A stretch of 35,724 nucleotides of DNA from Desulfurellales bacterium (GTDB taxonomy: Bacteria; Campylobacterota_A; Desulfurellia; Desulfurellales; Hippeaceae). The notes beneath the pieces were generated by a model. That model was given only the letters and a program-made list of their open reading frames with translations, did not search any database and was not told the origin of the DNA. The stretch is from assembly GCA_027064405.1 (NCBI GenBank), contig JAMOPP010000161.1, positions 1 through 35,724 of the forward strand. Direction: 5' to 3'. The stretch's first letter is position 1, and each line of letters begins with the position of its first letter. The position numbers were made by a program, and so were the translations under genes. Below are positions 6,293 through 30,153 of the stretch, in pieces.

Positions 6293-6307
6293 TTCTCATC
6301 CTCCCTT

Positions 6308-8122: not shown

Positions 8123-8140
8123 TACTAAAAGCCTCCTTTT

Positions 8141-8515: not shown

Positions 8516-8533
8516 CTGATATTTACCTCCTTA

Positions 8534-8911: not shown

Positions 8912-8982
8912 AATTCTTTCGGCCACAATATAAATACATGGAAATTGTAGCCTCAACCTCCTTCCTCAAAAAATTTACTCCA

Positions 8983-9011
8983 AGATTACTAAATAATTAA
9001 ATATTTGTCAA
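8983..9011 (-). promoter_or_regulatory. candidate sigma70-like promoter for sdhCDAB
   Basis: Minus strand: TTGACA (9011..9006), 17 nt, TAATCT (8988..8983). It lies just downstream of the fumB hairpin. Confidence 0.35.
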
Positions 9012-9019
9012 GAAAATAA

Positions 9020-9051
9020 GGATTAACCCCGTATTAAAACAGAGTTAATCC
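9020..9051 (-). terminator. weak hairpin after fumB (possible terminator of mdh-fumAB)
   Basis: GGATTAAC / GTTAATCC form an 8-bp stem with a 16-nt loop, followed on the minus strand by ttattttctt. Confidence 0.3.
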
Positions 9052-9063
9052 AAATTAATTTGA

Positions 9064-9627: not shown

Positions 9628-9633
9628 ACTCCT

Positions 9634-10482
9634 TTAAAGCTCTGTCTCTTTGTGCCTATTTACGTGACAAGCCGTGTTGATAGCCAAAGGCAATGTTGCT
9701 ATGTGGCAAGGCTCCATCTCTATATGCACAGCAAGACATGTTGTTAAACCACCCAAACCGGCAGGTCCTACACCTGAATTATTGATTTTAGTTAATATTT
9801 CCTTTTCCATATCAGCCAAATCAGGATCTGTGCTAGGTTCGCCCACTTTTCTTAGAGTTGCATGCTTAGCCATAACAGCACTTCTTTCAAAATCCGCTCC
9901 TATACCCACACCTATTATCGTGGGAGGGCAAGGATTCGGACCGGCCTCTATGACCCAATCAACGACAGTCTTAACAATTCCATCTCTGCCGTCTGCAGGT
10001 TTTAGCATCTGAACCTTACTCATAGATTCACTGCCACCGCCCTTTGCGTCAAAGACGATTTTAACCTTATCTCCAGGTACAACAAATGTGTGAATTATTG
10101 CAGGAAGATTGTTTCCATAATTTGCTCTTGTTAAAGGATGGCATGAAGACTTTCTTAGGTAACCATCTTTATATGCCCTTTCAACGCCACTATTGATGGC
10201 ATCTACTATATAGCCGTCTACAAAATGAACATCCTGCCCAACTTCCACAAACAAAATACCTAAACCGGTATCTTGACAAAGAGGAAACTCTTCTTTTGAC
10301 GATACTTCAATGTTGCTAAAAATCGTATCGAAAACCTTTTTTGCTACTTCCGATTTTTCCTTTGCGTAAGCTTCTTTTTCTGCAGCCAATACATCCTCAG
10401 GTATATGGTATGCTGCATCCAATGCCATTTTATATACTGCTTGCTCTACATCTTTTACGCTTACCTCTCTCACTTTAGCCAT
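9634..10482 (-). CDS. fumA: class I (Fe-S) fumarate hydratase, alpha/N-terminal subunit
   Basis: 282 aa. It has PLCQDTG and cluster-Cys contexts (CPPTIIGVGIG) typical of the class I fumarase/tartrate dehydratase alpha subunit. Confidence 0.88.
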   Translation of the reverse strand: MAKVREVSVKDVEQAVYKMALDAAYHIPEDVLAAEKEAYAKEKSEVAKKVFDTIFSNIEVSSKEEFPLCQDTGLGILFVEVGQDVHFVDGYIVDAINSGVERAYKDGYLRKSSCHPLTRANYGNNLPAIIHTFVVPGDKVKIVFDAKGGGSESMSKVQMLKPADGRDGIVKTVVDWVIEAGPNPCPPTIIGVGIGADFERSAVMAKHATLRKVGEPSTDPDLADMEKEILTKINNSGVGPAGLGGLTTCLAVHIEMEPCHIATLPLAINTACHVNRHKETEL

Positions 10483-10503
10483 AATAAGATTCCTCTATTT
10501 ATT

Positions 10504-11460
10504 TTATAAAAGTTTAAGATCGTCAACTCTCTTGCATATTTCTGCTACATGATCTGCTGATTTCTGTAATTCAGCTTTCTCCTGCTCTGACAAATCTATC
10601 TCTATAATTTCTTCCACTCCGCCATTTCCAAGCTTCACAGGAACGCCAACAGGAAGATCATTTATACCATACTGTCCGTGCAAGAACGCATGGCAAGGTA
10701 TAACCGCTTTTTCATCTCTCAAAATAGATTCCGTCATCCAAGATAGACCTGCAGCAGGTGCCCAATAAGCACTTCCTTTCTTTAGAAGTTTTACTATTTC
10801 TCCGCCACCCTTTCTTGCTCTATCAACGATTTCTTCCAATCTGCCAGCTTCAATTAATTTATTTACAGGAACACCGTAAATCTGAGAATAATCCCTTAAA
10901 GGCACCATATCATCACCATGACTTCCAAGAGTCATTCCCCATACATTCTTAACCGATACACCCTTCTCAGCAGCCAAGAATGACATAAACCTAGCTGAAT
11001 CCAAAGCACCTGCCTGTCCTACAAGACGATTATCAGGGAATCCTGTAACCTTTTTTGCTGCATAAATCATAGCATCCAAAGGATTGGCTACTACGAGGAA
11101 TATACTATTAGGAGCATATTTTGCCACATTTTCCGCAACCTGTCTCATAATAGGAATATTCTTACCCAACAAATCATCCCTGCTCATTCCCGGCAATCTT
11201 GGGAAACCTGCTGTCATAACAACAACATCCGAATCCTCGATAGCTGCATAAATTTCGCCCTTTGATGAGCCTTTAATTTTAGTATCAAAGCCCAAAATAG
11301 GAGCAGATTCCATCATATCAAGAGCTTTTCCTTCAGGAAGATCCTCAACGACATCTGTCATTACTATCTCATCTGCTATTCCTCTCATAGCCATGATGAA
11401 AGCAGCAGACTCACCGACATGACCTGCACCGATTATACTGACTTTACGAATACCTAACAT
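10504..11460 (-). CDS. mdh: NAD-dependent malate dehydrogenase (LDH-like family)
   Basis: 318 aa. Rossmann fold KVSIIGAGHVG, substrate loop AGFPRLPGMSRDDLL, catalytic region GSHGD. GGAGG SD lies 7 nt upstream. Confidence 0.9.
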   Translation of the reverse strand: MLGIRKVSIIGAGHVGESAAFIMAMRGIADEIVMTDVVEDLPEGKALDMMESAPILGFDTKIKGSSKGEIYAAIEDSDVVVMTAGFPRLPGMSRDDLLGKNIPIMRQVAENVAKYAPNSIFLVVANPLDAMIYAAKKVTGFPDNRLVGQAGALDSARFMSFLAAEKGVSVKNVWGMTLGSHGDDMVPLRDYSQIYGVPVNKLIEAGRLEEIVDRARKGGGEIVKLLKKGSAYWAPAAGLSWMTESILRDEKAVIPCHAFLHGQYGINDLPVGVPVKLGNGGVEEIIEIDLSEQEKAELQKSADHVAEICKRVDDLKLL

Positions 11461-11523
11461 ACTGTAACCTCCTAAAAAAATATTAATTGTTTATGTTCTC
11501 TTCGTCGTATCCCACGATAATAA

Positions 11524-11551
11524 GGTATACTCAAAATCTTCTCTATGTCAA
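11524..11551 (-). promoter_or_regulatory. candidate promoter for mdh-fumAB
   Basis: Minus strand: TTGACA (11551..11546), 16 nt, TATACC (11529..11524). Confidence 0.3.
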
Positions 11552-18362: not shown

Positions 18363-19205
18363 TCATTCTGTTTTTAGAGAATATAGGCTCTCTGAATGTT
18401 GTTTAATAAGTTCGGCTTTCTTTTGAGTAATATCCAACATTGACATTAATGTCTTTGTATCTATAGGAATAATATCTTTAATTAGTATTATGTTATTTTT
18501 AATGAGTTTATCGGATAGACGGGCTTTAATGCCACTTAAAATTGTGACGGGATAAAGCTTTTTATCCTCTATCATTTTTTTTAAACTATATTCTTGAGGA
18601 TAATTCCATGATATTGCCTTGAAATTCATACATGAGGCATAATTTATCGCATCTATCGTCAATCTTGTATTGGTTACAAGCCACCCTTCATAATTCGGCT
18701 TTAAGTAGCGCTTTTTTAATACATTCTCCAAATCTTTAAACCTCGAATGGACATAAAGCGCAACCTTGGCGTCAGATGCTCTCTGCGCATTGGAGTGATA
18801 TTTGCATTCCACACTCACCACAAGGTTATGCTTTGTTCCAAGCACATCTATTTCATGCCTAATACACTTCCCCTTAAGCGTTAGGTTTGTTTCCGTTTTA
18901 AAGCCATACGCCTTCATTAAATCTGCAAAATACTGCTCAAAGGTATAACCCGCCGGGCCAAGTTTAAGCATAGCCTTTTTTAAAGAGTAGAGAAAAAATG
19001 ATCTACGGTTAATGTTCCTTAGAAACTTATGAGACAAAGAATATATATAATTTGTACTAACCTTGTTTTTTATGTAAGGTGCAACAAGCTTATAAACGGC
19101 TTCCGCTTCACTGTTGCTCGCTCCTGACCTTTTTAAGGAATTTTTGAGCTTTTGAGGATCAAATTCCTCCAATTGCCCATTTGCCTTTCTTATCTTAACA
19201 CTCAT
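18363..19205 (-). CDS. ATP-cone domain protein fused to a PD-(D/E)xK (Mrr-like) nuclease fold with a possible C-terminal HhH
   Basis: 280 aa. The N-terminus VKIRKANGQLEEFDPQKLKNSLKRSGAS...AEAVYKLV fits the ATP-cone pattern. The middle region HEIDVLG...VVSVECKYH supplies D...ExK. The C-terminus SGIKARLSDKLIKNNIILIKDI...ITQKKAELI is HhH-like. The start lies 3 nt after the HyfB-like stop. Confidence 0.65.
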   Translation of the reverse strand: MSVKIRKANGQLEEFDPQKLKNSLKRSGASNSEAEAVYKLVAPYIKNKVSTNYIYSLSHKFLRNINRRSFFLYSLKKAMLKLGPAGYTFEQYFADLMKAYGFKTETNLTLKGKCIRHEIDVLGTKHNLVVSVECKYHSNAQRASDAKVALYVHSRFKDLENVLKKRYLKPNYEGWLVTNTRLTIDAINYASCMNFKAISWNYPQEYSLKKMIEDKKLYPVTILSGIKARLSDKLIKNNIILIKDIIPIDTKTLMSMLDITQKKAELIKQHSESLYSLKTE

Positions 19206-19208
19206 AAT

Positions 19209-21083
19209 CTAAGCTATAAAGAAAGTTAAAATAAAAATTACAAGTATATAAAATATATAGATATAAATTTTGCCGTTCATTAAATATCTGCTTGTTACAT
19301 TGCCCATACTAATAAATGCATTGCGAAAAAAAGAATAGAAAAATTCCATTCTATCTTCAGCTACAACGCTACATACCTGATTTTTTTTAATTTCTTTCGT
19401 ATTGTATACCTTCTTTAATATGTATTTAAGTATGTACGAGTAGGCATCCGCAGTAAAATATTCTTTTTCTTTTAATTCAAGTCCGCCGTTCCACGATGTA
19501 ACCTTTTTTACTCTTTTGTTGGTCGCAAGGTATATTAAAAACGGCACTATAAACAGAATAAGCGCAACTATAGCAAAATAGGTTGGAGCCAAAACTCCGA
19601 ATACCGGCTTGCCTGAAAGTATAAGAAACGGCTTTGAAACGGATAAAGCACCTGATAACATATAGGAATAACCGCTTAATTTAATAATAAACGGAGCACC
19701 TATGCCTGTTAAAATCACTAAAATTATAAGAAAGATTTCTGAAAATTTCATAAAAAACGAAGGTGTCTTAACGGTTTTTTTATCATGGTCGTAACCCAAC
19801 GCCGTGTATCCTATAAGTTTAACCATCGAAAAACCTGTCAATCCTATGGCAAGCGCTATCAAAAGGCCGGATACCGTTGTGAAAAATTTTTCCGCATCGT
19901 TTACAAGTTTATAGGATTGAAACACAGACTCAAGAAGCATCCACTCCCCTACATACCCTGCAAGAGGGGGAAATGCACTGAAAGATAGAGACGATATCAG
20001 CACCCCGAGTGCAGGAGTTTTTCCAACACCCTTCCAGATTCCCCTAATATCATCAATAGTGTCAGCCTTGTATGCCTTTTTAGCATGCCCTATTGATAGA
20101 AACATAAGAGTTTTTGAAAATGTGTGAGCCGCAATAAGGATTATAGCTGTAACAAAAGCAAAATGAGACAGATAGTTCAAAGAACTGTAATTTAATGTAA
20201 GAGCGGAAAGCCCGAGTATAGATAATATCATACCATTATTTTCAACCGTAGAATATGCAGGAAGCGTTTTTACACCACTTGCAGCTACAGCCTGCAAAGC
20301 ACCCCAAAATGCAGACACCGCACCAAGCGTAGTGAGCGTTATCGCCCACCATTGAGGAAAAGCACTACTTGATAAAATTATTTTAGAAATTCCATATGCG
20401 CCAAGAAGTGTCATCGGAGCACTCAATATAGCACAGGTGTTTGACGGGTCTTTTGAATAAACATCCTTCATCCAAGTATGAAAAGGCGTTACATCCATTT
20501 TTATCAAAAATCCCAAAGATGCAAAAACGGTAAAAACAGCCGTATTATTCTGGAATATTATGGTTGTATGATTTGTAAAATACGTGTATGCAAACCCGGC
20601 CATTAAACTCAATGCCGACAGTTCTCCATATGCCAAAAAGCCGTATGCTTTTCCAAAAGGCACTCTTCTTTCGATTAATATCAATAAAAATGAAAAGATG
20701 GTCATAAGTTCCCAACCTGCAAGAAAAGTTATGGAATCATTGGCTACAAAAACTATGAGCATACTTAAAAATACTATATTAAAAAACGCAGATGTCGATT
20801 TTTCGTGAGTTGCACCGTGATCTATGGAAAATAAGGATATAGCTGCCCACGATAATGATGCTACTGCCAAAAAAACAGCGCTGCTCTTATCAAGAAAAGC
20901 ATTAAGAACAATACTGTCCGTTAAATGTATGTTGTAGATAACAAGTTTTTGGCTAAATGTCGCACAAGCCGTCGCAAATGATGCAAGAGAACCAAAAAAA
21001 GCTAAAATATATCCCCATCGATTTGAAAAAGATGCAACAATGCCAAGTATAAACAGTGCTACCGCAATTATAAAAAATGTCAT
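19209..21083 (-). CDS. HyfB/NuoL/MrpA-type antiporter-like membrane subunit
   Basis: 624 aa polytopic protein with LAGWELMT (TM5 Glu) and LIKMDVTPFHTWMKD (Lys + HxW motif). It overlaps the small-subunit gene by 4 nt (ATGA). Confidence 0.8.
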   Translation of the reverse strand: MTFFIIAVALFILGIVASFSNRWGYILAFFGSLASFATACATFSQKLVIYNIHLTDSIVLNAFLDKSSAVFLAVASLSWAAISLFSIDHGATHEKSTSAFFNIVFLSMLIVFVANDSITFLAGWELMTIFSFLLILIERRVPFGKAYGFLAYGELSALSLMAGFAYTYFTNHTTIIFQNNTAVFTVFASLGFLIKMDVTPFHTWMKDVYSKDPSNTCAILSAPMTLLGAYGISKIILSSSAFPQWWAITLTTLGAVSAFWGALQAVAASGVKTLPAYSTVENNGMILSILGLSALTLNYSSLNYLSHFAFVTAIILIAAHTFSKTLMFLSIGHAKKAYKADTIDDIRGIWKGVGKTPALGVLISSLSFSAFPPLAGYVGEWMLLESVFQSYKLVNDAEKFFTTVSGLLIALAIGLTGFSMVKLIGYTALGYDHDKKTVKTPSFFMKFSEIFLIILVILTGIGAPFIIKLSGYSYMLSGALSVSKPFLILSGKPVFGVLAPTYFAIVALILFIVPFLIYLATNKRVKKVTSWNGGLELKEKEYFTADAYSYILKYILKKVYNTKEIKKNQVCSVVAEDRMEFFYSFFRNAFISMGNVTSRYLMNGKIYIYIFYILVIFILTFFIA

Positions 21084-21544
21084 TTTGCACCTCGATTTGC
21101 TACTTTTAATAAAACTGCCAAAATTTCATCCGGCGTGGGCAGAAAGTCAATTTTGCCAACTATATGTTTTTTATCTATAAAATCCGAATAATCATCGTAT
21201 TCTTTGCATCCGTTAATTATAAGAATACCAAATTGATTCGGCATCTGATTTATTGTTTCCTTCAAAGGTTCAACCATTTTACGATTCACGGGACCTGCTA
21301 TGATAAGCAAATCTGCATGTCGCGGAACTGCTGTAAAAAATATACCGAATCTGTGAGTGTTGTATTGAGGAGACTGCAAAGCCTTGAATGTAAAATTGAG
21401 GGCATTTGAATTACCAGTATCTATAACAAAAATATGAAGAGATTTTGAAAAAACCCCGCCCAAAGGTTTAATATCAATATCAGTGTCGTATCGTTTTTTC
21501 TCTGTTAAGTTTTGTTTTAAACCGTGAAATGGCCAAAATTTCAT
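21080..21544 (-). CDS. NuoB/HycG/EchC-like small subunit homolog lacking the [4Fe-4S] cysteine set
   Basis: 154 aa. The core RFGIFFTAVPRHADLLIIAGPVNRKM matches the family signature (ERFGI..ASPRHADVLLVTGPVT). The Cys motifs are replaced: GSCNGCE becomes TGNSNALN, GCPP becomes FLPTP, and only NGCK retains one Cys. Confidence 0.75.
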   Translation of the reverse strand: MKFWPFHGLKQNLTEKKRYDTDIDIKPLGGVFSKSLHIFVIDTGNSNALNFTFKALQSPQYNTHRFGIFFTAVPRHADLLIIAGPVNRKMVEPLKETINQMPNQFGILIINGCKEYDDYSDFIDKKHIVGKIDFLPTPDEILAVLLKVANRGAK

Positions 21545-21559
21545 AAAAATTTCTCCAAA

Positions 21560-22783
21560 TTATCTTGCAGCATCTGCAAAATTAACACCAAAAGATTCAA
21601 CGGTAAACACAAAATCCGTAAAAATCTGATTTACAAGAGAATCAGCAATTGCTTTAAATCCCGTAACGGACGGTGTTACCACATAAATATTTTTTATTTT
21701 CGAATTCTCAATTTCTACATAGTATGCCATAGTGCCACTCGGAGACTCTACAGCTTCCACGCAGCTTCCGTCAGATATATCCAATCTTTGAGCTTTTTCC
21801 TTTGAAGTATCAAGATTTTCCACATTCTTTTCTATGAATTTAATTGAATCAAGAATTTCATATGCCCTCACTTCCATTCTTGAAAGAGAGTCCCCCTCTT
21901 TTTTTGAAATAACTTCAAAATTCTCATAATCATTTGTCCTTAAATCCTCTGCTATACCGCTTGCACGGCAAGACGGACCGCTCAAACCTATTTCAACCGC
22001 TTTTTGAGCTGTTATTATGCCGGTATTGTGAAGTCTGTCTAAAAAGTTTCCGCTTTGAAGTGAGCCGCTGTATAAATCCTCGAACCTCGATTTTATATTT
22101 TGAAGTCTTAACAACAAATCCTTCTTTTTTTCATAAGATAAAGATATATCAAGTTTTCCTATTTGATTTATATTTGTTAGAAATCTATCTCCGGTAAAGG
22201 ATTCATTTGCCCTAAGCGATTCCTCGAAAAGATAATAAAGATGTGATGATAGAACCTTTTGCGCTGCACCATTTGCAAGCTGAGCTATAACATAAATATG
22301 GTTGTAGATTCTTTCAAGTTCAAGCAGTATCCCTCTTAGTATGCGTGTTTCGTCGTCTATTTTAATATTAGATATAGACTCAACCGCCTTTGAAAATGCT
22401 ATTGAGTGAGAAATGGCAAAATTTCCGCATATTGATTCTGCAAGTGCAACCGACTCCAACGGATTTTTACCTATCATCAGCTTTTCTATATTTCTTTTTT
22501 TGTATGTTGTATCTATATTTACAGAGAGAATTTTTTCTCCATATGTGTATATATTGTAAATTCCGGCTTCGCCTACGCCGCCTGTAACGGGTCCGTATCT
22601 AAAATTAAAAACACCATCTCCTTCAACCGCTTCTCCCCCTATTAAGCTATCCCTATTAATAAGGGTTTTATAGTTCGGAAAATCGCTACCTTTACAGGAG
22701 GCATCTATTTTTACATTCATCGATTTATCCTGCACTATACACAGTTCACTGTTGTTATTTTGTACTACTCCAAGTAACTTCAT
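21560..22783 (-). CDS. group 4 [NiFe]-hydrogenase large subunit / NuoD-like protein lacking Ni-Fe ligands
   Basis: 407 aa. Family pattern: FRYGPVTGG, TYKKRNIEK, LAESICGNFAISH (canonical RxCGxCxxxH), LLELERIYNH. The C-terminus ESFGVNFADAAR replaces the canonical DPCxxCxxR. Confidence 0.8.
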   Translation of the reverse strand: MKLLGVVQNNNSELCIVQDKSMNVKIDASCKGSDFPNYKTLINRDSLIGGEAVEGDGVFNFRYGPVTGGVGEAGIYNIYTYGEKILSVNIDTTYKKRNIEKLMIGKNPLESVALAESICGNFAISHSIAFSKAVESISNIKIDDETRILRGILLELERIYNHIYVIAQLANGAAQKVLSSHLYYLFEESLRANESFTGDRFLTNINQIGKLDISLSYEKKKDLLLRLQNIKSRFEDLYSGSLQSGNFLDRLHNTGIITAQKAVEIGLSGPSCRASGIAEDLRTNDYENFEVISKKEGDSLSRMEVRAYEILDSIKFIEKNVENLDTSKEKAQRLDISDGSCVEAVESPSGTMAYYVEIENSKIKNIYVVTPSVTGFKAIADSLVNQIFTDFVFTVESFGVNFADAAR

Positions 22784-24153
22784 TATCTTATCACTCCTGC
22801 AAGAAGCAGATTAAATTTAGGTATCAAAAAAATAGTTAAAAATGCCAAGATGATATGCATAGCGGGTATTAAATTTACAAGCATATGCCTTTCGTTACTC
22901 TCCGCCTCTTCCTTTGAAAAAATCATCTTTCCCGTGTAATAGTTAACCGATATAAAAGCCAATGAAGCAAAGAGTGCAAACACTACAACACTTATTATTC
23001 CGTAAACCTCATAAAGTTTTGACATAATCAATATCTCACCTGCAAAAGTCGCAAATGGCGGTGCTCCTGTTGCTGCCAATGATGCAAAAAATAGGCTGTA
23101 TGCAGTAAAAGGCATATGATTGAACAGGTTCTTTACTTCATCGATACGAGTTTTTTTTGTTCTTATTAAAATATTGCCACTTAAATAAAAAACAGCCGAT
23201 TTTGCAAATGCATGGGCAACTATAACAATCACCGAACCTAAAATTGCGTATCTCCCAAGAGATATACCTATTAAAGCTATTCCCATATTTTCCATAGAAG
23301 AGTAGGCATAAAGCCTCTTGTAATATTTCTGAACAGTGCTTAGGGTTGCCGCTGTTACAAGTGTTAGAAAACCGAGAATAAACATAAACTCTTTGACAAT
23401 GTGTGAAGAATACACCTCTGTCGTTCTAAATATACCAAAAAGAGCAACCGGAAGCAGAACGCCTGAAAATATTGCGCTAATCGGCGACGGAGCTTTTCCG
23501 TGAACATCAGGAAGCCAACTGTGCATAGGGAATATTCCGGCTTTTGTGCCGTAACCTACAACTGCCATCAATATTCCTAAGGTTATTATTTTATCATTTA
23601 CACCATGCATAGATGCAAGTTTCACAAAATCCAGAGTTCCTCCCGCTCCGAATATAAAAACATTTCCAAAAAGAGAAACAACAAGACCGACCGAAACTAT
23701 TATTATATATCTCCAGGTAGCCTCTATCGATTCTTTGGAATTTTCTATGGCAACCAAAAGTGCACTTGTAATTGTTGTGGCTTCTATACCGACCCATATC
23801 AGACCGAGATTTTTAACCATAACACTAAAAAGCATACTGAAAGTGAAAAGGTTTAGCCATAAAAAATAAAAATTTTGTTTTAAAAGAGGGTTATGTATAT
23901 GTTTTATGTAACTTATCGAATAGATGGTTGTTCCCATATATATGATAGATATGGTAAAAAGCATAATTTTAGACGCCCCGTCTATGTAGATAAAATAGTG
24001 TGAAAAATTTTGACTAAAGGCAATTGCAATGGAAGATACAAGCGTTAGAATAGAAAACAGAACGGATGAATATTGAGACAGCTTGTCTATTTTAATTAGG
24101 GATACAGTCGCTGCCACAAGCGTAAAAATTAAAGGCAAAGTGTAAAATATCAT
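22783..24153 (-). CDS. HyfF/HyfD/NuoN/MrpD-type antiporter-like membrane subunit
   Basis: 456 aa polytopic protein with IWVGIEATTITSALLV and GTKAGIFPMHSWLPDVHGKAPSPISA motifs. It shares 1-nt overlaps with both neighbours. Confidence 0.8.
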   Translation of the reverse strand: MIFYTLPLIFTLVAATVSLIKIDKLSQYSSVLFSILTLVSSIAIAFSQNFSHYFIYIDGASKIMLFTISIIYMGTTIYSISYIKHIHNPLLKQNFYFLWLNLFTFSMLFSVMVKNLGLIWVGIEATTITSALLVAIENSKESIEATWRYIIIVSVGLVVSLFGNVFIFGAGGTLDFVKLASMHGVNDKIITLGILMAVVGYGTKAGIFPMHSWLPDVHGKAPSPISAIFSGVLLPVALFGIFRTTEVYSSHIVKEFMFILGFLTLVTAATLSTVQKYYKRLYAYSSMENMGIALIGISLGRYAILGSVIVIVAHAFAKSAVFYLSGNILIRTKKTRIDEVKNLFNHMPFTAYSLFFASLAATGAPPFATFAGEILIMSKLYEVYGIISVVVFALFASLAFISVNYYTGKMIFSKEEAESNERHMLVNLIPAMHIILAFLTIFLIPKFNLLLAGVIR

Positions 24154-24154
24154 A

Positions 24155-24793
24155 TCAACCCTTCAGCTCTTCACTGTTTTCTAAAGAATCCGGAACAAAA
24201 TTTTCTCTCAATCTGCCTATCAAACTCGATATCATCACAACCCCTATCAAATCCAAAACAACACCGGCTTCAATAGTTAGTGAAAGACCGGGATAAAAAT
24301 ATGTGCCAAAAATAAGAATAGAATTTTCCATAATCATATAACCCACAAGCTGCGTAAATGCATTCCGTTTTGAAATCATTAAAAATACGCCCTGAAACAT
24401 CAATGAAAGCAGTACCGCTCCGCTCCTTATCTGCAAATCATCATATAAGCTTACATAGTACACAAAATATCCTACAACTGCACTCAAGATTGAGAATATT
24501 ATTGACGATGCAATTCCAAATGTAGGCTGCGTTTCCCTTGCTCTCCATTTTTCTTTCTTCAGCTTCTTAATCATAAAATAGGGTATAAAAATAACCCTCA
24601 CAAGAAGCGTTAAAAGAGCAACATATATCACCACAGGCTCTTTCGTATTCATTCCTATATACAATAAAAAGGAAGCCATAAAAAAAGAACTAATTGAAAA
24701 AGTAATTATTGTTTTTTTAATATAAACCTGCCACTGCATAAAAATAACAAGAAGAACCTCAATCGACCCGAAAAGTAAAAGCATTTTATCCAT
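24155..24793 (-). CDS. HyfE-like membrane subunit (NuoK-related)
   Basis: 212 aa. The C-terminal half ISKRNAFTQLVGYMIMENSILIFG...EAGVVLDLIGVVMI...ELKG parallels my recollection of E. coli HyfE (VSQRNILRQIFGYCLMENGSHLV...LTALKG). Confidence 0.75.
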   Translation of the reverse strand: MDKMLLLFGSIEVLLVIFMQWQVYIKKTIITFSISSFFMASFLLYIGMNTKEPVVIYVALLTLLVRVIFIPYFMIKKLKKEKWRARETQPTFGIASSIIFSILSAVVGYFVYYVSLYDDLQIRSGAVLLSLMFQGVFLMISKRNAFTQLVGYMIMENSILIFGTYFYPGLSLTIEAGVVLDLIGVVMISSLIGRLRENFVPDSLENSEELKG

Positions 24794-25746
24794 TAGAATA
24801 TCCCGTTTGCCGCATATATTGCAAGCATACCTATTAGAATAACAGAAAATGTAACAGCTATATAATCAAAAATTTTATACAATCGATACTTTGAAACAGT
24901 TTCGTTTATAAAAGCAAAAATAATAACAAGGGTAAACATTTTTAAAAGATGAATACCGGAATAGATAAATACAGCACTTAAAGATGTATATTTCATAGGA
25001 ACCCAAAACGGACATGCATAAACATTTAAAAATACACTCATAAGCAGAAACTGTTTTATATATCCGCCCCATTTATATACGGCGAGGTCACTTCCTGAAA
25101 ACTCCATCTCCATAGATTGATCTATCATACCAAATTCTCCGTGAGTTTTGGCTTCAATGGGCAGTTTTCCCGTTTCTACTATTAAGTTCATAAAAAATGT
25201 AGCCGCTATAAATATATGAACAACCGAGAAATACCAGGAGCTGGAGGTTTGGAATACATTGTTAATAACATAAGGATTGTTTGTATTTGAAATAACACCG
25301 CACAAAATAAAGAGCAAAACCGTAATAGGCTCTGAAAGTGCACCTATACTGGATGCCCTTGCAGTTCCAAGATGTGAATAGTTGTTTCTACTATCCAGCG
25401 CAACGATTTTCTTTATTATACCCGCAGCGCCAAAAATGAGACCTCCTCCAATAAAATCTGCCGTAGGACCAAAAGCCAAAGGAAATGCGGTAATAATGGG
25501 CAAGATGATAATAATCAACATATAAAGTGCAAAATTAATATATGGACCTATTCTAAATACGCCTGATGCAACCTTTGGGACTACATTTTCCTTTGTGAAG
25601 AGTTTATGTAGGTCATAGTAAGGCTGAAAAATAGTGGGACCCGCTTTGGATTCCATCTTTTCTTCCACTGTCGAGAGTATGCCTACTATTAACGGTGCAA
25701 AAAGAATTACATATACAAGTTGGATGAAACTTAAAGCGACTAACAT
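24793..25746 (-). CDS. HyfC/HycD/NuoH-like membrane subunit
   Basis: 317 aa. KMESKAGPTIFQPYYDLHKLFTKE matches the NuoH/HycD N-terminal loop signature (Q.R.GP...QP..D..KL..KE). AGGAG SD lies 4 nt upstream. Confidence 0.8.
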   Translation of the reverse strand: MLVALSFIQLVYVILFAPLIVGILSTVEEKMESKAGPTIFQPYYDLHKLFTKENVVPKVASGVFRIGPYINFALYMLIIIILPIITAFPLAFGPTADFIGGGLIFGAAGIIKKIVALDSRNNYSHLGTARASSIGALSEPITVLLFILCGVISNTNNPYVINNVFQTSSSWYFSVVHIFIAATFFMNLIVETGKLPIEAKTHGEFGMIDQSMEMEFSGSDLAVYKWGGYIKQFLLMSVFLNVYACPFWVPMKYTSLSAVFIYSGIHLLKMFTLVIIFAFINETVSKYRLYKIFDYIAVTFSVILIGMLAIYAANGIF

Positions 25747-25748
25747 CA

Positions 25749-25775
25749 GACTCCTCTGTCTTTGAGTTAGGAGTC
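25749..25775 (-). promoter_or_regulatory. leader hairpin that pairs the SD of the first operon gene
   Basis: Minus strand: GACTCCT-aactcaaagacag-AGGAGTC-tg-ATG(25746). The 3' arm is the SD itself. Confidence 0.3.
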
Positions 25776-25910
25776 ATTGGCTTAAAAAATAAGCGGTTAA
25801 AGGTGAACCCCTCCACCTTATAGTTTCACGGCTTTTAACAGATTTTCATTTATATGTCAAGTTAAAAAACAAATCTAAAATATATACAAAATCTCCTCAC
25901 ACTATTATAC

Positions 25911-27743
25911 TCAGTCCTGTTTTTCACTCATCACAGTCTTATTTCTACCTGAATTTTTTGCTTTGTAAAGAGCTAAATCCGCAAGTTTTATGGCTTTGTC
26001 AAAATTGTTATCATTACCCGAAAATTCGCTTACACCTATACTTATGGTGACATTGATAGATGTGCCGTTTATTTTTATGCTACTTGATTCAACTCTTTTC
26101 CTTATATTCTCGGCAATCTCAAAAGAATTCTTTTTATCCGCATTTATAAGGAAAATTAAAAACTCCTCTCCGCCGAAACGAACAACAACATCAGACTCTC
26201 TAACGCTTTTTGTCATAATTTTTGCTACATTTTTCAATACTTCATCCCCCACATCATGCCCGTATGTGTCGTTAACTTTCTTGAAAAAGTCAATATCGCA
26301 CATAAGTATTCCCAATTTATTACCACTTCTTCTTGCGTTTTTTATTATCAAATCCTCGGTTCTCGATACAAATCTTCTATTGTATAGACCCGTTAATTCG
26401 TCATACAACGCAATCTTCTTTAAATCGTTTTCATACCTTCTAACCCGCTTTATTAAACTGTTAAATTTGTCTATTATGTAGCTTAACTCTTTTATTGCAC
26501 ATTTTTGGCTATCTATCGATCTCGAATGTCTTAAAGATTGATCAAACTCATTGAACAATTTATCGGTATAGCTTCTCGTAACTTTTTTAAGAATAAACAA
26601 AAACAACAAAGCAACAACCATCATAAGCAAAATCAAAAATACGATTGTATGTTTTATTGCATTCAAATGCGCTATAGCTACAGAAACCCGAGTATTAATA
26701 ATGGGCTTTAAATCGTTGATATATATCCCTGTTGCAAAAATCCAGTGCCAGGGTTTATACAACCTAAAACAACTTATCTTTTTCTCCACTTTATCTGAAT
26801 TCGGCACTTTATAGTAGTATTCAACAAATGAATAACCTTTATTTCTTATATCCTTTAAAAAAATTTTTCTAAACTTAAAACCCCTTACATCTGTATATTC
26901 ATCCGACATACATTTATTCAACAAGTCAGGCCTGTTTACATTAACCAACATTTTTCCAAAGCAGTTGCCACCATTTATGTTTAGAAGTTTGATAACAAAT
27001 ATATAACCGTGATTATCCTTACCGTATCTATACAAAGAAAGTTGATTTAACCATTTTCGCTTCAACCTTCCCTCTAAATACTCAGTATCAATTCTTGTAA
27101 CAAGAACCCAGTCAAACGGTTTGTAATATTTTACAAAGGTTATACCCTTTTGCTTAATTGATGCGGGATTTAAATCGTACCAATTGGACACGAAATACTG
27201 ATTAATAAAATCCTCTTTTTTTGTTTTTGCTGTTTTTATAATGTCTCTTATTATAGAATTTCCCTTAAAATCTTTCAAATTAATAAAGTTTTTACCTTCA
27301 GCATTTATATCGTAAGGATTTACTACACAATTACCTTTTGCATCAAAAATATAATAAGAGATTGACGGATCTGAAAATGTTTTATCTTCAAGGTATCTTC
27401 TTAAAAGTAGCTTCATTTTCTTTTTTGTCGCATATTCACCATACATCATACGCATATGCTCTAAATGTTTATATATTACCCGATTCATTATAACCTCTTT
27501 TTTCATATCAGCTACATCTTGTTTTCTTTCACTGTCAATGGTTTTTATTATATTTTCTATCATTGATTTGGCATACTGTTTCGAGTTGTCCATATATACT
27601 TTCTTGATTGTCTCAATGTCATCTTTGGCAACCTTTTCACTTGTATAATACCAATAGCCTGCAAAAACAGCAGAAACTATTATGGATATAATCAAAAAGA
27701 CAGATATTATAAAGCTTATAGCAGATATATTTTTAATCTTCAC
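25911..27743 (-). CDS. membrane sensor diguanylate cyclase: two tandem Cache modules, TM, GGDEF
   Basis: Cache hallmarks (KPFDWVLVTRIDTEYL; KPWHWIFATGIYINDL). GGDEF domain with DELTGLYNRRF, DIDFFKKVNDTYGHDVGDEVL and RFGGEEF, plus an RESD I-site. GTG 27743 (GAGGGTG SD 5 nt upstream) is preferred over the track's ATG 27779. Confidence 0.85.
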   Translation of the reverse strand: MKIKNISAISFIISVFLIISIIVSAVFAGYWYYTSEKVAKDDIETIKKVYMDNSKQYAKSMIENIIKTIDSERKQDVADMKKEVIMNRVIYKHLEHMRMMYGEYATKKKMKLLLRRYLEDKTFSDPSISYYIFDAKGNCVVNPYDINAEGKNFINLKDFKGNSIIRDIIKTAKTKKEDFINQYFVSNWYDLNPASIKQKGITFVKYYKPFDWVLVTRIDTEYLEGRLKRKWLNQLSLYRYGKDNHGYIFVIKLLNINGGNCFGKMLVNVNRPDLLNKCMSDEYTDVRGFKFRKIFLKDIRNKGYSFVEYYYKVPNSDKVEKKISCFRLYKPWHWIFATGIYINDLKPIINTRVSVAIAHLNAIKHTIVFLILLMMVVALLFLFILKKVTRSYTDKLFNEFDQSLRHSRSIDSQKCAIKELSYIIDKFNSLIKRVRRYENDLKKIALYDELTGLYNRRFVSRTEDLIIKNARRSGNKLGILMCDIDFFKKVNDTYGHDVGDEVLKNVAKIMTKSVRESDVVVRFGGEEFLIFLINADKKNSFEIAENIRKRVESSSIKINGTSINVTISIGVSEFSGNDNNFDKAIKLADLALYKAKNSGRNKTVMSEKQD

Positions 27744-30153
27744 TATTGCACCCTCTTTTTGTATTAACCTTATAAACAAGCTCTTCTACTGTTTCCGCAT
27801 CATCAGGATAAATAGCATAATTTATATCAAAATCAACATAATCCACAACACTCTTACCATCCTTATCTTTCATTGTATAGAATTCACTATTAGAAAAAGC
27901 ATTCTTAAATTCATCTTTTAGCTTTTTCTTAGACCTTTTCATCATTTCAGTTTCTTTATTGATATTTCGCTCTTTTTTGAGTTCGTGTGCAATAAAAAAT
28001 ATATCAGCATAAGCCCTTGACACAAGTTGTTTTTTACATATATCCGGCTCCTCTTTGGATAAATTAAGAAGTACTTGAGCCATACTTATAATTACAGCAT
28101 CCCCTGCCTGCTCAGAAAACATATAGTTAATTCTTGAAATCTGTTTTATATTGATTCTAATAAAAACAAATCTTCTTTTTTCATCTATTAATTTCTGAAT
28201 TTCTTTTAAAAATACAGACCTTAATTCCAATCCTGTCATATAATCAACCTTAAAAATCTCATTTCTCATAATATCTACATCATAAGACATAAACCTCACT
28301 TCCGTGAAATCTTCTTGCGTATAAGACTCAATAAGCACAGATTCTACCTTCTGCAAAATTTCTTTATCAACACTCTCCTGTTTCAATATTTCCATAGCCT
28401 TACTTGGTGAAAATGCATGCCTGTATGGTCTTGTTGTTGTCAAGGCATCAAAGATATCCGCAATGGCAAGTATTTTTGCACCAATTGTAATCTCGCCACA
28501 TTTTAAACCGTCAGGATATCCGCTACCGTCACACTTTTCGTGATGTCCCCTTACGCAGTTTGCAAAAGATTTAAAATGTTCTAACTCTTTTAAAATTTCA
28601 TAAGAGAAAACAGGATGATATTTCATTATTCTATACTCATTCTCTGATAATTTTCCGGGCTTTAAGAGTATATTGTCAGGTATTCCTATTTTTCCTATGT
28701 CATGCAAAAGTCCGGCTTTGTAGATATACTCCTGCTTTTTTGTATCTAAACCCAATGTTTTAGCTATTTTTTTGGCATAGTAGGCTACCCTTTGAGAATG
28801 ACCTTTTGTGTATACATCTCTTGCTTCCATAATGTTGACAAAAGATTGTATAAATTCATCTTCGTAAATATTGTCTATTTCCGCCTTTTTATCCAACATT
28901 TTATTTGCGTTTAATGCCATTATTCTCAGCTCTTTTAATTCAATTTCTCTCAAATTAATCTTTTTATCCTTTAAGGCAGCATCTTGAAAAAACGAAGTAA
29001 AAACATTAAAGTCATTCTTTAATTTTTTATACAAACCATAATATAAAAATATAGAAAACAATATTAGTAAAAATGATATAGAAATCACCATTATAACACG
29101 ATAAAACATTTTTCTATACAGATTTTGTTTTATCAATGTTGTCATATTTTCTATCTCATCGGTATATACGCCTGCACCCACTATCCAATTCCACTCTTTT
29201 ATTCCATACACAAACGAAATTTTAGGATATTCTTTCTTTGAATTATCTATCTTAGGCCAAGAATAGTATATAAATCCTCCATCCTTCTTTAACGCTGCAA
29301 TCTTTTCTTTTTCGAATACGGTTTTTGCCTTTTCTCCAAAAGCAGACCATAGCTTTTTCCCATTTTCAATAACCCTACCGTTAGAAGATAAAATATATCC
29401 GTCAAAAGTATTAACAAATACATACCCGCCGTTTTCAAACCTTATTTTGCTTATTTCACCAATAATATATTTTTGTGTTTCATATCTTAAATCATCAACA
29501 TATACACCTGTACCTATCAACCAATTAAACGGCTTAAACTCCTTTACATAGGCTATTTTTAAAAACTTTTTACCCTCCTGATGCGGTTTAGACCAATGGT
29601 ATGAATAAACACCCTCCTGCTGTTTTTTTACTATTTCAATCATATCCTTTACGACATACTTCCCATCTACATCCCGCACAGCAAGCATATTTTTGCCCTC
29701 AAATTCAGGCTTGTCAGGAAAAAGCTCTTCGATTCCATCAAGATTTGTTGCAAAATAGTATCCATTTCCCCTTAAAAAACGCATAGGACGCAAAGCATCT
29801 TTGACCATCTTTTTAATTTCAGGCAGGCTTTTTTTGTCTTTATTTTTCCGATAGATATTTTCCGCTATAGCGCATGCTTCATATACCCTCTGCCTAACCC
29901 TTTCCGCAGCCTGTTTTCTGCTTGTCTTAATTTGGTATCCAATCATATCAACGACAGACATAACCTCTTGCTTTACAAGCTGTTTTTGGCTATCTGTATA
30001 TTCAGCTCTCATCATTGACGCTAAATAATTAAGATTTTTGTGCACAACAAATATCTGTAACGCAAGCATTAATACAGATGCAAAAATCAATGCAACCGTA
30101 GCCATTTTCATTACGCTATTTACGGATTTTACTTTTTTGCTATTTTGCCTCAA
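27733..30153 (-). CDS. membrane sensor HD-GYP phosphodiesterase: two tandem Cache modules, TM, HD-GYP, degenerate C-terminal GGDEF-like domain
   Basis: Cache hallmarks (KPFNWLIGTGVYVDDL; WNWIVGAGVYTDEI). HD-GYP motifs are complete: GHSQRVA, LLHDIGKIGIPD, HHEKCDGSGYPDGL, IADIFDAL. The C-terminus is GGDEF-fold-like, but DxD reads INIK and GGDEF reads YADIF. Confidence 0.85.
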   Translation of the reverse strand: MRQNSKKVKSVNSVMKMATVALIFASVLMLALQIFVVHKNLNYLASMMRAEYTDSQKQLVKQEVMSVVDMIGYQIKTSRKQAAERVRQRVYEACAIAENIYRKNKDKKSLPEIKKMVKDALRPMRFLRGNGYYFATNLDGIEELFPDKPEFEGKNMLAVRDVDGKYVVKDMIEIVKKQQEGVYSYHWSKPHQEGKKFLKIAYVKEFKPFNWLIGTGVYVDDLRYETQKYIIGEISKIRFENGGYVFVNTFDGYILSSNGRVIENGKKLWSAFGEKAKTVFEKEKIAALKKDGGFIYYSWPKIDNSKKEYPKISFVYGIKEWNWIVGAGVYTDEIENMTTLIKQNLYRKMFYRVIMVISISFLLILFSIFLYYGLYKKLKNDFNVFTSFFQDAALKDKKINLREIELKELRIMALNANKMLDKKAEIDNIYEDEFIQSFVNIMEARDVYTKGHSQRVAYYAKKIAKTLGLDTKKQEYIYKAGLLHDIGKIGIPDNILLKPGKLSENEYRIMKYHPVFSYEILKELEHFKSFANCVRGHHEKCDGSGYPDGLKCGEITIGAKILAIADIFDALTTTRPYRHAFSPSKAMEILKQESVDKEILQKVESVLIESYTQEDFTEVRFMSYDVDIMRNEIFKVDYMTGLELRSVFLKEIQKLIDEKRRFVFIRINIKQISRINYMFSEQAGDAVIISMAQVLLNLSKEEPDICKKQLVSRAYADIFFIAHELKKERNINKETEMMKRSKKKLKDEFKNAFSNSEFYTMKDKDGKSVVDYVDFDINYAIYPDDAETVEELVYKVNTKRGCNSED

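Follow-up and report, generated by a model that had tools for sequence, protein, structure and literature searches.

Six genes on the minus strand of a 35,724-nt stretch of Desulfurellales DNA (the window) very probably encode a fluoride-regulated, non-redox complex of the Ehr type. A fluoride riboswitch precedes the first gene and links a family of uncharacterised function to fluoride stress. The riboswitch bears on when the complex is made rather than on its activity. That it is some kind of ion translocator is probable; that it specifically carries out cation/proton exchange is possible, at somewhat less than even chances. Our best overall reading, a fluoride-inducible, cofactor-free, Ehr-type, PMF-coupled cation/proton exchanger, is put forward tentatively. 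The features of the locus are as follows.

25832-25860, minus strand: promoter-like site, read by eye (TTGACA 25860-25855, 17-nt spacer, TAAAAG 25837-25832)
25761-25826, minus strand: fluoride riboswitch aptamer (crcB motif, RF01734), Rfam covariance match
25749-25775, minus strand: predicted expression platform, hairpin GACUCCU/AGGAGUC, from the minimum-free-energy fold and the sequence
24793-25746, minus strand: EhrB, 317 aa, HyfC/HycD/NuoH-like membrane anchor
24155-24793, minus strand: EhrC, 212 aa, HyfE-like membrane subunit
22783-24153, minus strand: EhrD, 456 aa, HyfF/NuoN-like antiporter-like subunit
21560-22783, minus strand: EhrL, 407 aa, [NiFe] large subunit/NuoD-like, without the metal site
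21080-21544, minus strand: EhrS, 154 aa, NuoB/small-subunit-like, without cluster ligands
19209-21083, minus strand: EhrA, 624 aa, HyfB/HycC/NuoL-like antiporter-like subunit with a C-terminal ND3-like extension
18363-19205, minus strand: possible passenger ORF, 280 aa, with ATP-cone, Mrr-like nuclease and AF1548-like C-terminal domains

An earlier, sequence-only reading had described six packed ORFs from 25746 down to 19209, spaced by -4 to +15 nt. The coordinates are exact, and the junctions from EhrB to EhrA (-1, +1, -1, +15 and -4 nt) span precisely that range. Its homology assignments (HyfC/NuoH, HyfE, HyfF/NuoN, large subunit/NuoD, small subunit/NuoB and HyfB/NuoL) are borne out by Pfam and NCBIfam matches, those to NCBIfam all scoring under their curated cut-offs. 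EhrB matches PF00146 (NADHdh, 6.7e-27), and its top solved relative is HycD (7z0s_D, 1.5e-26). EhrD matches PF00361 (4.4e-57) and the HyfF model (1e-113), and EhrA matches PF00361, the HyfB model (3e-95) and HycC (7z0s_C, 2.4e-26). EhrC has a weak match, under cut-off, to the NCBIfam HyfE model NF008556 (2.5e-11), and none in Pfam or among PDB sequences. EhrL carries PF00346 and PF00374; its family profile matches MbhL at 8e-37, and the top fold match of its AlphaFold model (pLDDT 90.5) is HycE (7z0s_E, TM 0.81). For EhrS the PF01058/NuoB models match under cut-off and the family profile matches MbhJ at 3.6e-16. Among 1.8 billion representatives, only about eight 50%-identity clusters match this subunit over its full length. 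The passenger ORF begins 3 nt past the EhrA stop and may be a seventh, co-transcribed gene of a transcription unit that probably begins at the riboswitch; no such ORF lies beside any other cassette examined.

The aptamer scores 40.3 bits against RF01734 (gathering score 34, E 5.9e-8) over model positions 1-64 of 64, and is the sole Rfam match in the window. It ends 15 nt before the EhrB start codon at 25746. Its membership of this family suggests that the leader binds fluoride. GACUCCU (25775-25769), the 3' pseudoknot strand, is complementary to AGGAGUC (25755-25749), which overlaps the Shine-Dalgarno sequence GAGGAG (25756-25751), and the resulting Shine-Dalgarno-sequestering hairpin is found in the minimum-free-energy fold of the leader. 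From this fold we infer a translational ON switch. With no fluoride, the 3' strand of the aptamer (ACUCC) would pair with the Shine-Dalgarno sequence; with fluoride, the pseudoknot would absorb it and ribosomes could start to translate the operon. The TTGACA/TAAAAG site may be the promoter; a consensus promoter scan did not list it, owing to the final G of its second hexamer.

The leader recurs at related loci. With a purpose-built covariance model (at least 20 bits, 17-157 nt 5' of the first gene), the same aptamer was found 5' of the six-gene cassette in 38 of the 44 related loci with upstream sequence, in two divergent clades: 28/34 loci of the close clade and 10/10 of the distant one or, by dereplicated groups, 22/24 and 6/6. 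Rfam independently confirms it in loci L001, L004, L011, L013 and L023. Pairing in the two stems and the pseudoknot reaches 99% among homologous leaders, with compensatory changes on both sides in 7 of 13 pairs. Genes that recur in the flanks (crcB, DUF190, enolase, pyrophosphatase, MutS_V and metallophosphoesterase) belong to the known fluoride regulon, and several carry a riboswitch copy of their own. The sequence-only reading was incomplete in missing the riboswitch, which gives the complex a physiological context, as well as a possible seventh gene and a clade with NuoC, described below.

In alignments to MbhL and HycE, extended manually across the last 10 residues, the four Ni-Fe cysteine positions of EhrL are C119, F122, N401 and D404, one of four being kept. 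Position 119 is Cys or Ser in the family, with Ser in about one-fifth of relatives. The NuoD quinone ligands are also replaced, the His of the beta1-beta2 loop by T66 and the Tyr at the L1 position by G120. In EhrS, S46 and L49 occupy the places of the first two cluster cysteines, C113 at the third position is the only cysteine there and is unconserved in the family, and the region of the fourth ligand is truncated; across 51 family sequences no cysteine is conserved. Genes for NuoI/HycF, NuoC, FdhF, NuoEFG, hyp and hycI are absent from the window, and in 52 dereplicated related loci the cassette is linked neither to an Fe-S subunit nor to a donor gene.

The earlier claims that the 2x[4Fe-4S] subunit (HycF/HyfH/NuoI), NuoC, the donor module and the hyp and hycI genes are absent, and that the redox subunits are short of metal ligands, thus stand. 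So does the assignment to a non-hydrogenase of the Ehr type, as no redox centre is present in the cassette or its close family, which matches catalogued Ehr. Hippea has hypF, hypC and hypD at 3-7 kb from the cassette, the only such case among 52 locus groups. In a distant actinobacterial clade of the same family, a NuoC domain is fused and the small subunit has a ferredoxin-like N-terminus (CxxCxxC). The lack of the NuoC domain and of this N-terminus is a trait of the present clade and not of the whole family. As far as residues and gene content can tell, the complex has no Ni-Fe site, Fe-S cluster, quinone ligands or electron-input module. It is ruled out as a hydrogenase, a formate hydrogenlyase (FHL) or a quinone reductase.

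Proton-path residues were read against the FHL structure paper (bioRxiv 10.1101/2022.03.21.484881). At least 95% of relatives retain the ND1-type loop acids of EhrB (E191, E198, E204, D209 and E215), and EhrC has invariant E156, E175 and D181. Conserved in EhrD are E124 (TM5), K204 (TM7), H314/K318 (TM11) and E373 (TM12), and in EhrA E125, K195, H320/K324 and E380. The ion path is conserved and may well be a working one, which fits the earlier suggestion that the complex moves ions in step with some process that is not electron transfer. In large subunits, the FRYGP segment of the beta1-beta2 loop is among the most conserved.

How might such a complex be used? With redox chemistry absent, it would run redox-independently over the retained path of TM5 Glu, TM7 Lys, TM11 His/Lys and TM12 Glu in both antiporter-like subunits, together with the acidic NuoH-type loop, the membrane glutamates and the beta1-beta2 loop of the large subunit, parts on which purifying selection is strong. 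We propose a PMF-coupled cation/proton exchanger, Mrp-like or like deactive complex I, in which the degenerate NuoB/NuoD pair would cap or gate the NuoH-like subunit. Its benefit would come once entering HF has made the cytoplasm acidic and ATP-driven pumps are blocked by metal-fluoride complexes, when it would help to regain the balance of pH and ions. The literature lends support: Na+/H+ antiporters are the second commonest class of fluoride-riboswitch-associated genes (PMC11139923), deactive complex I has Na+/H+ antiporter activity (PMC3464577), and Mrp is a relative without redox (PMC7419157). The complex is a candidate exchanger, and its exchanged ion is a guess. Against exchange, the strongly conserved 407-aa and 154-aa cytoplasmic module has no obvious place in a plain antiporter, the central TM8 lysine is gone from both antiporter-like subunits (P234 in EhrD, L226 in EhrA), the HycD E-channel is partly altered in EhrB (by alignment, E130 to A, Y102 to L and R108 to G), and MrpB, E, F and G, thought to form the Na+ path, are absent. 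In addition, electrogenic exchange of H+ in for Na+ out would acidify the cytoplasm, seemingly the wrong direction for HF stress.

The main rival, though unlikely, is a PMF-driven exporter of fluoride or HF. Here the chamber at the NuoD/NuoB/NuoH-like interface, which formerly held the Ni-Fe site or quinone, would bind the anion, and H+ flow through both antiporter-like subunits would drive its outward release at a high H+/F- ratio, useful in acidic habitats. Fluoride is the presumed inducer, and the carriers include Hippea and soil Actinobacteria, among them acid-tolerant or acidophilic organisms. Purifying selection is strong on the coupling loops and on both the large and the small subunit, a hint that the membrane arm remains coupled to some ligand event in the chamber. 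Fluc channels bind fluoride through Phe/Asn/Ser/Thr-type side chains, and Phe, Asn, Ser and Thr stand in place of the metal ligands (e.g. CGNF, TDFxF and SFG in the large subunit, DxGNSN in the small). However, the two riboswitch-linked clades differ in their residues at the old ligand positions (where one has N121/F122 and D404, the other has V/I-A and G), and the bulky Phe and Leu may simply fill empty cofactor cavities. The conserved Glu and Asp lining the membrane path are in the style of a cation/proton translocator and unfavourable for an anion. Moreover, crcB shares an island with the cassette in three locus groups; fluoride export is therefore already supplied there.

Less probable still is a non-redox chemical step by the cytoplasmic module, coupled to the proton path, or a fluoride-sensing gate. 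In CupA of cyanobacterial NDH-1 and in DabA with DabB, CO2 hydration is coupled to PF00361 subunits. The coupling loops are conserved, and the polar residues E72, E116, H126, T389, D390 and S397 around the former active site of EhrL are invariant in both clades. Yet domain and fold searches found no catalytic motif or domain past the NuoD and NuoB folds, and D390, S397, H126 and the ELER motif are conserved superfamily-wide and may be structural.

Slightly further down the scale, and very unlikely, is a redox enzyme whose membrane module is seen here and whose electron-input partner, e.g. formate dehydrogenase, and cofactor are encoded elsewhere. FDH-Ehr complexes have been hypothesised in Margulisbacteria (PMC6349859), and the like has been suggested for Geobacter, whose Ehr subunits are more abundant on formate (PMC7894505). 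The NuoC-bearing clade and the Hippea hyp genes point the same way. Against this, electrons would have no route to the chamber, N2-type cluster ligands being missing in 51/51 small subunits and NuoI/HycF absent; the Ni-Fe cysteines and quinone His/Tyr are lost; the 52 locus groups have no recurring redox gene next to the cassette; and the predicted regulator is fluoride instead of a redox substrate.

A decaying hydrogenase remnant, as Geobacter Ehr has been held to be (PMC13194489), or a genuine FHL is scarcely credible. In favour of one or the other are the lost catalytic ligands and database names such as 'formate hydrogenlyase subunit 5' or 'Ni,Fe-hydrogenase III large subunit'. A true FHL is ruled out because the Ni-Fe and Fe-S ligands are gone and HycB, HycF and FdhF are absent. 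The complex is not a relic because purifying selection is strong on each of the six genes (median dN/dS 0.05-0.10). With ORFs intact and identically ordered in 90 loci of several phyla, 57 invariant EhrL columns and a dedicated, conserved riboswitch, the sequence evidence refutes both in practice.

The proposed exchanger resembles several known systems. The name Ehr was first given to complexes of Geobacter sulfurreducens (GSU0739-0745; Coppi 2005 and Marreiros 2013, as relayed in PMC3569383, PMC6349859 and PMC7894505), and their function is called unknown (PMC10284858, PMC10432482). Compared by published subunit set and order, both are membrane complexes akin to complex I and the group 4 hydrogenases, with a large subunit without Ni-Fe cysteines and the subunits EhrA (NuoL/HyfB-like), EhrB (HycD-like), EhrC (HyfE-like), EhrD, EhrL and EhrS. 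The gene order fits the published ehrB ... ehrA-2, and the KN400 tags (ehrB 0718, ehrA-2 0713; PMC13194489) are compatible with this six-gene order; Geobacter differs in an additional ehrA-1. E. coli FHL (Hyc, PDB 7Z0S) and hydrogenase-4/FHL-2 (Hyf) provide the nearest solved relatives of four subunits (HycE, HycD, HycC and HycG) and the top NCBIfam models (HyfB, HyfC, HyfE and HyfF), and share the ND3-like C-terminal extension of the HyfB/HycC-like subunit. Unlike them, the cassette has no Ni-Fe site, proximal cluster, HycF/HyfH, HycB/HyfA, FdhF, HyfD or maturation protease. It keeps the TM7 lysine (K195) that is Leu208 in HycC and has lost the TM8 lysine (HycC K239).

Mrp (PDB 6Z16, 7QRU) likewise has no redox chemistry, and two PF00361 antiporter-like subunits with the Glu/Lys pattern. 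The cassette is not an Mrp-family member because it has no MrpB, E, F or G, yet has NuoH-, NuoD- and NuoB-like subunits that Mrp lacks. In MBS the Ni-Fe site has been lost while coupling was kept. MBH (6CFW), MBS (6U8Y) and complex I, like the cassette, join a large subunit, a small subunit and a NuoH-like anchor to antiporter-like subunits, and MbhL and MbhJ are the top sequence matches of EhrL and EhrS; these complexes keep a [4Fe-4S] chain and a redox substrate site, whereas the cassette has neither.

The fluoride-riboswitch regulon, as PMC11139923, PMC8004769 and PMC8752731 relay it from Baker 2012, comprises crcB/Fluc, CLC-F, enolase, pyrophosphatase, Na+/H+ antiporters and 'formate hydrogen lyase'. 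The cassette resembles it in the RF01734 aptamer directly 5' and in its islands with crcB, DUF190, enolase, pyrophosphatase and MutS-like genes. That literature takes the last class as a real, fluoride-sensitive FHL, whereas the cassette proteins are without FHL redox centres. The Ehr literature searched made no mention of fluoride. The cassette is probably the riboswitch-associated 'formate hydrogen lyase', though it is unable to be one.

The six ORFs that the sequence-only reading had placed between 25746 and 19209, with spacings of -4 to +15 nt, were found at exactly these coordinates, and the homologies it proposed (HyfC/NuoH, HyfE, HyfF/NuoN, large subunit, small subunit and HyfB/NuoL) agree with the Pfam and NCBIfam assignments. 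That reading had named no regulatory leader, and a fluoride riboswitch upstream of the first gene had been missed. The features of the region are as follows.

Just upstream of the riboswitch, minus strand: promoter-like TTGACA-17 nt-TAAAAG, read by eye alone
25761-25826, minus strand: fluoride riboswitch, Rfam RF01734, 40.3 bits (gathering score 34), E 5.9e-8
24793-25746, minus strand: NuoH/HyfC-like subunit, 317 aa, PF00146
24155-24793, minus strand: HyfE-like subunit, 212 aa, a weak NCBIfam match and nothing else
22783-24153, minus strand: HyfF/NuoN-like subunit, 456 aa, PF00361
21560-22783, minus strand: NuoD/[NiFe] large subunit, 407 aa, PF00346 and PF00374
21080-21544, minus strand: NuoB-like small subunit, 154 aa, below cut-off
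19209-21083, minus strand: HyfB/NuoL-like subunit, 624 aa, PF00361

The gene junctions of this cassette are -1, +1, -1, +15 and -4 nt, and its base composition is like that of the remainder of the window. All NCBIfam matches of the six proteins lie far under the curated cut-offs, so none of them counts as orthologous to any enzyme subunit with a name; the HyfE-like profile had no match in the PDB. The rest of the window is housekeeping, including GroESL, an SPFH/NfeD pair and two Cache-domain c-di-GMP enzymes. Succinate dehydrogenase/fumarate reductase (flavoprotein, Fe-S and two membrane subunits), a two-subunit fumarase and malate dehydrogenase form a run at 5570-11460 on the minus strand, which is ordinary central metabolism and unrelated to the cassette. 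The absence from the window of a 2x[4Fe-4S] subunit, a donor module and hyp or hycI genes, as first claimed, was borne out: no NuoI/HycF, NuoC, FdhF, NuoEFG, hyp or hycI gene was found there.

A 280-aa ORF (18363-19205, minus strand) with ATP-cone, Mrr-like nuclease and AF1548-like C-terminal domains begins 3 nt past the last cassette gene and is therefore probably co-transcribed with it. It was rejected as a seventh subunit, being unique to the window and missing beside all other cassettes examined. Immediately upstream of the cassette are two dCache-domain c-di-GMP genes (25911-27779 and 27733-30153, both minus strand), a GGDEF cyclase and an HD-GYP-type protein. The cassette of Hippea maritima DSM 10411 (locus L002), which lies at CP002606 1,302,800-1,309,350, and that of locus L006 likewise have GGDEF/EAL genes beside them. 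A c-di-GMP link was rejected: GGDEF genes are next to the cassette in three loci but do not recur in the clustering of neighbours, and the adjacency is probably coincidence.

The riboswitch, the sole Rfam match in the whole window, is full-length (model positions 1-64 of 64), and 15 nt separate its end from the ATG of the first gene. The 3' strand of its pseudoknot, GACUCCU (25775-25769), has its complement in AGGAGUC (25755-25749), a stretch overlapping the Shine-Dalgarno sequence GAGGAG, and the GACUCCU/AGGAGUC hairpin occurs in the minimum-free-energy fold. This leader has the arrangement of a translational ON switch, in which fluoride-dependent pseudoknot formation would release the ribosome-binding site. 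Promoter and terminator scans were not better than shuffles.

A profile search that listed close relatives only gave approximately 200-250 relatives of the large subunit, counted as 90% clusters. Their identity is 44-58%, and the assemblies that carry them belong to Hippea, Desulfurellales, Ignavibacteria, Bacteroidota and Spirochaetota. A single-protein scan of genome contigs gave one locus. Ninety loci with related cassettes were fetched, representing 52 groups after dereplication at 85% large-subunit identity. A survey of the exact gene order, as the sequence-only reading had proposed, found it identical in every one of the 90: H-E-F-L-S-B, for the HyfC/NuoH-, HyfE-, HyfF/NuoN-, large-subunit/NuoD-, small-subunit/NuoB- and HyfB/NuoL-like genes. 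Besides the close clade, to which the window belongs, there is a much larger distant clade (L063-L090) at about 30% identity, from acidic soil and peat metagenomes, some named Streptosporangiaceae, which keeps the cassette gene order. In the distant clade a NuoC domain (PF00329) is fused to the large subunit, so the earlier statement that NuoC is missing holds within the window but not for these relatives. Their small subunit begins with a ferredoxin-like domain bearing CxxCxxC...CP (for example L069, large subunit 9205-10692 and small subunit 10713-11537), and one Fe-S cluster may survive in this clade. A distinctive C-terminal TDFPF...SFG motif of the large subunit is common to both clades.

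Some lineages carry additional genes. In Ignavibacteriaceae loci a small GIY-YIG nuclease ORF lies between the small-subunit and HyfB-like genes (L004 11943-12230; L005 5944-6321). In one sub-clade (L015, L019, L022, L024 and L050) a DUF6062 gene follows the HyfB-like gene after about 4 nt (L019 10987-11631, for example), and its product may be a lineage-specific extra component.

Is the riboswitch peculiar to this window? A loose pattern search found aptamer-like sequences 5' of the first gene in 20 loci. Fifteen of these leaders were aligned and served as the seed of a covariance model. In the alignment, pairing reaches 99% in both stems and the pseudoknot, 7 of the 13 pairs are changed on both sides, and between the clades the pseudoknot GGAGU/ACUCC is swapped for GAGGC/GCCUC; the observed covariation score was reached by none of 500 shuffles. 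Counting matches of at least 20 bits, located 17-157 nt upstream of the first gene, the model detected the aptamer in 28 of the 34 close-clade loci with upstream sequence (22 of 24 groups) and in all 10 such distant-clade loci (6 of 6 groups), with 22 of the matches coming from outside the seed alignment. The Rfam model itself scored above its gathering score before the cassettes of L001, L004, L011, L013 and L023. By this covariation and distribution, the predicted fluoride riboswitch is a property of the cassette family.

Among the few loci without a covariance-model match, one count of which gives four, L009 (6900-6975) and L036 (360-435) have leaders that look aptamer-like by eye (AGCGGAGGAACUCGCU...CAAUAGCUCCUG). 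In these AACAGUUGUG takes the place of the usual AACCGCC stem, so that they may represent a fluoride aptamer variant that has diverged. Within the distant, actinobacterial clade, two aptamer matches approximately 140-230 nt apart lie in tandem upstream of the first cassette gene (L063 6076-6340; L066 6022-6371; L067 4946-5295), which suggests tandem riboswitches.

Clustering of the flanking ORFs of all loci revealed no recurring redox partner. The families that do recur are MutS-domain-V, dynamin-like GTPase, metallophosphoesterase, MFS transporter, enolase, inorganic pyrophosphatase, DUF190 and CrcB, and several of these genes are preceded by a fluoride riboswitch of their own. L004 (1-21296) has three Rfam-confirmed fluoride riboswitches within 21 kb, to which the covariance model adds two; the copies precede crcB-DUF190, a MutS-domain-V pair, the cassette, a CMAS-type methyltransferase and a metallophosphoesterase-HEAT-dynamin-like GTPase group. 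L048 (1-21233) has five Rfam-confirmed copies within 21 kb, and enolase, pyrophosphatase and MFS genes downstream of its cassette. Because several recurring neighbours bear riboswitches of their own, the cassette is one component of fluoride-response islands.

Linkage of orthologous clusters to a NuoI/HycF-like or NuoC-like gene plus hyp genes had been named at the outset as evidence against a complex devoid of redox centres. Across the 90 loci no cassette contains a Fer4 gene, and elsewhere in the window SdhB is the only one. Genes hypF, hypC and hypD lie 3-7 kb downstream of the cassette in Hippea maritima (L002 16929-21212), with unrelated genes between, and do not recur near the cassette in the 52 locus groups. 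A hyp linkage, confined to Hippea within the flanking sequence of these groups, was judged improbable, and these genes presumably serve the genuine Hippea hydrogenases.

The claim that both remaining redox subunits had lost most of their metal ligands is upheld by alignment. Large-subunit positions were taken from alignment to MbhL, HycE and Nqo4, with the last 10 residues extended by hand on MbhL. The four Ni-Fe cysteine positions (L1 RxCGxC, L2 DPCxxC) are here C119, F122, N401 and D404, the L1 motif being CGNF where hydrogenases have CGxC, and N401 and D404 occupying the L2 cysteine positions in the hand-extended part. The one remaining cysteine, C119, is Ser in about one fifth of 37 relatives and Cys in the others, and the distant clade has none of the four, nor any N2-type ligand. 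Thiol chemistry at C119 was rejected on these grounds. The ligands by which NuoD holds quinone have gone too: T66 replaces the His of the beta1-beta2 loop (GPVT66 vs GPQH), and G120, at the L1 position, aligns with Tyr87 of Nqo4. Where MbhJ has its first two cluster cysteines, the small subunit has S46 and L49; at the third position stands the non-conserved C113 of the window, and around the fourth the protein is shorter. Among 51 family members this subunit shows no conserved cysteine, and the N2 cluster ligands are absent. With neither the His/Tyr ligands nor cluster N2, quinone reduction was rejected. The alignments show a complex predicted to have neither an electron route nor a redox substrate site.

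The AlphaFold model of the large subunit has a pLDDT of 90.5 and a pTM of 0.92, the beta1-beta2 loop (residues 65-71) and the tail at the C-terminus being the two regions of low confidence. Among known structures it resembles HycE of E. coli FHL most closely (TM 0.81, 21% identity). From this confident model and match, the predicted fold is intact despite the loss of the cofactor sites. Median dN/dS is 0.05-0.10 in all six genes, both 'dead' redox subunits included, which argues for a functional complex rather than a decaying remnant.

What, then, might the complex do? Residues conserved in at least 95% of relatives were read against the FHL structure paper (10.1101/2022.03.21.484881). Both antiporter-like subunits keep the TM5 Glu/TM7 Lys pair, the TM11 His/Lys and the TM12 Glu; the NuoH-like subunit keeps the acidic ND1-type loop (E191, E198, E204, D209, E215) and the membrane Glu139; the HyfE-like subunit keeps E156, E175 and D181; and the large subunit keeps the FRYGP beta1-beta2 loop. 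Neither antiporter-like subunit keeps the TM8 lysine (P234 and L226 stand in its place), and three HycD E-channel residues are altered in the NuoH-like subunit. From the conserved residues we infer that the membrane arm still moves protons or cations, and they fit the early suggestion of an ion-translocating machine coupled to something other than electron transfer. With no chemistry as driver, the membrane arm would have to run as a secondary transporter.

We tentatively favour a fluoride-induced cation/proton exchanger, which would aid pH and ion homeostasis under HF/F- stress. This possible function is preferred because acidic residues line the path, because Na+/H+ antiporters are the second commonest gene class linked to fluoride riboswitches (PMC11139923), because crcB in the same islands already exports fluoride, and because redox-free relatives, namely Mrp (PMC7419157) and deactive complex I (PMC3464577), behave as such exchangers. 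The main rival, which is unlikely, is a fluoride exporter driven by proton motive force and using the former active-site chamber. It would better explain the strong conservation of the cytoplasmic module and the coupling loops. On the other side, the former-ligand residues differ between the two clades, and the bulky Phe and Leu substitutions may do no more than fill empty cavities. In this reading the former Ni-Fe/quinone chamber would have become a site for fluoride (or HF or Mg-F), each F- being pumped at the cost of several H+. If such a pump did exist, fluoride exporters would have a third class beside Fluc and CLC-F, and the complex I superfamily its first member that handles an anion and does no redox chemistry. 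The assignment of a fluoride site to the particular residues N121, F122, N401 and D404 was rejected, these residues not being common to the second riboswitch-linked clade. Other readings were rated lower: that a redox partner is hidden, that the complex is coupled to some other chemistry or acts in sensing, and that it is a relic or a true FHL.

Complexes of the Ehr type (energy-converting/Ech-hydrogenase-related) have been catalogued since 2005 and occur in many phyla. Separately, three papers, all citing Baker 2012, place 'formate hydrogen lyase' among the genes most commonly linked to fluoride riboswitches, and treat it as a real, fluoride-sensitive fermentation enzyme that is up-regulated (PMC11139923, PMC8004769, PMC8752731). 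We found no paper linking Ehr complexes with the fluoride riboswitch. Database names of the present proteins include 'formate hydrogenlyase subunit 5' and 'Ni,Fe-hydrogenase III large subunit', and such names very probably gave the riboswitch-linked class its own. The window and the roughly 90 related loci indicate that the two puzzles, the function of Ehr and the riboswitch-linked 'formate hydrogen lyase', are one object, and that the genes under riboswitch control encode a cofactor-free, complex-I-like machine that cannot be a hydrogenlyase. The reading of that gene class in the fluoride literature would thereby be corrected. The Ehr clade would gain a defined inducer, fluoride, and a cluster of 'function unknown' a specific, testable physiological role, and the fluoride regulon would gain a membrane component that is large and as yet uncharacterised. 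Nature has, moreover, set up an experiment here on how complex I coupling machinery behaves once all redox chemistry is gone.

How does the cassette compare with known systems? A Group 4 [NiFe] hydrogenase or FHL has four Ni-Fe cysteines, a proximal [4Fe-4S] cluster and a HycF/NuoI-type subunit, and respiratory complex I has the NuoD His/Tyr and the NuoB cluster N2; of these the cassette keeps one Ni-Fe cysteine position alone (C119, Cys or Ser in the family). Mrp (CPA3) comprises the MrpA-G set, whereas here there are only two PF00361 subunits and the HyfE-like protein, and Pfam and NCBIfam identified no MrpB, E, F or G homologue among the window proteins. Ehr complexes were first noted in Geobacter (PMC3569383, PMC6349859, PMC7894505), where a 2026 paper regards the Geobacter copy as non-functional (PMC13194489), and the function of Ehr complexes was called unknown as late as 2023 (PMC10284858, PMC10432482). 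They are defined as complex-I/Ech-related membrane complexes with a large subunit without Ni-Fe ligands (PMC3569383, PMC6349859, PMC10284858), as is the case here. The subunits EhrA, B, C, D, L and S (PMC7894505, PMC13194489) are likewise all encoded in one operon. The ligand loss and this subunit set agree with the initial 'Ehr-type' reading, and by definition and subunit set the predicted complex is a new member of the Ehr type, a known kind that is as yet uncharacterised.
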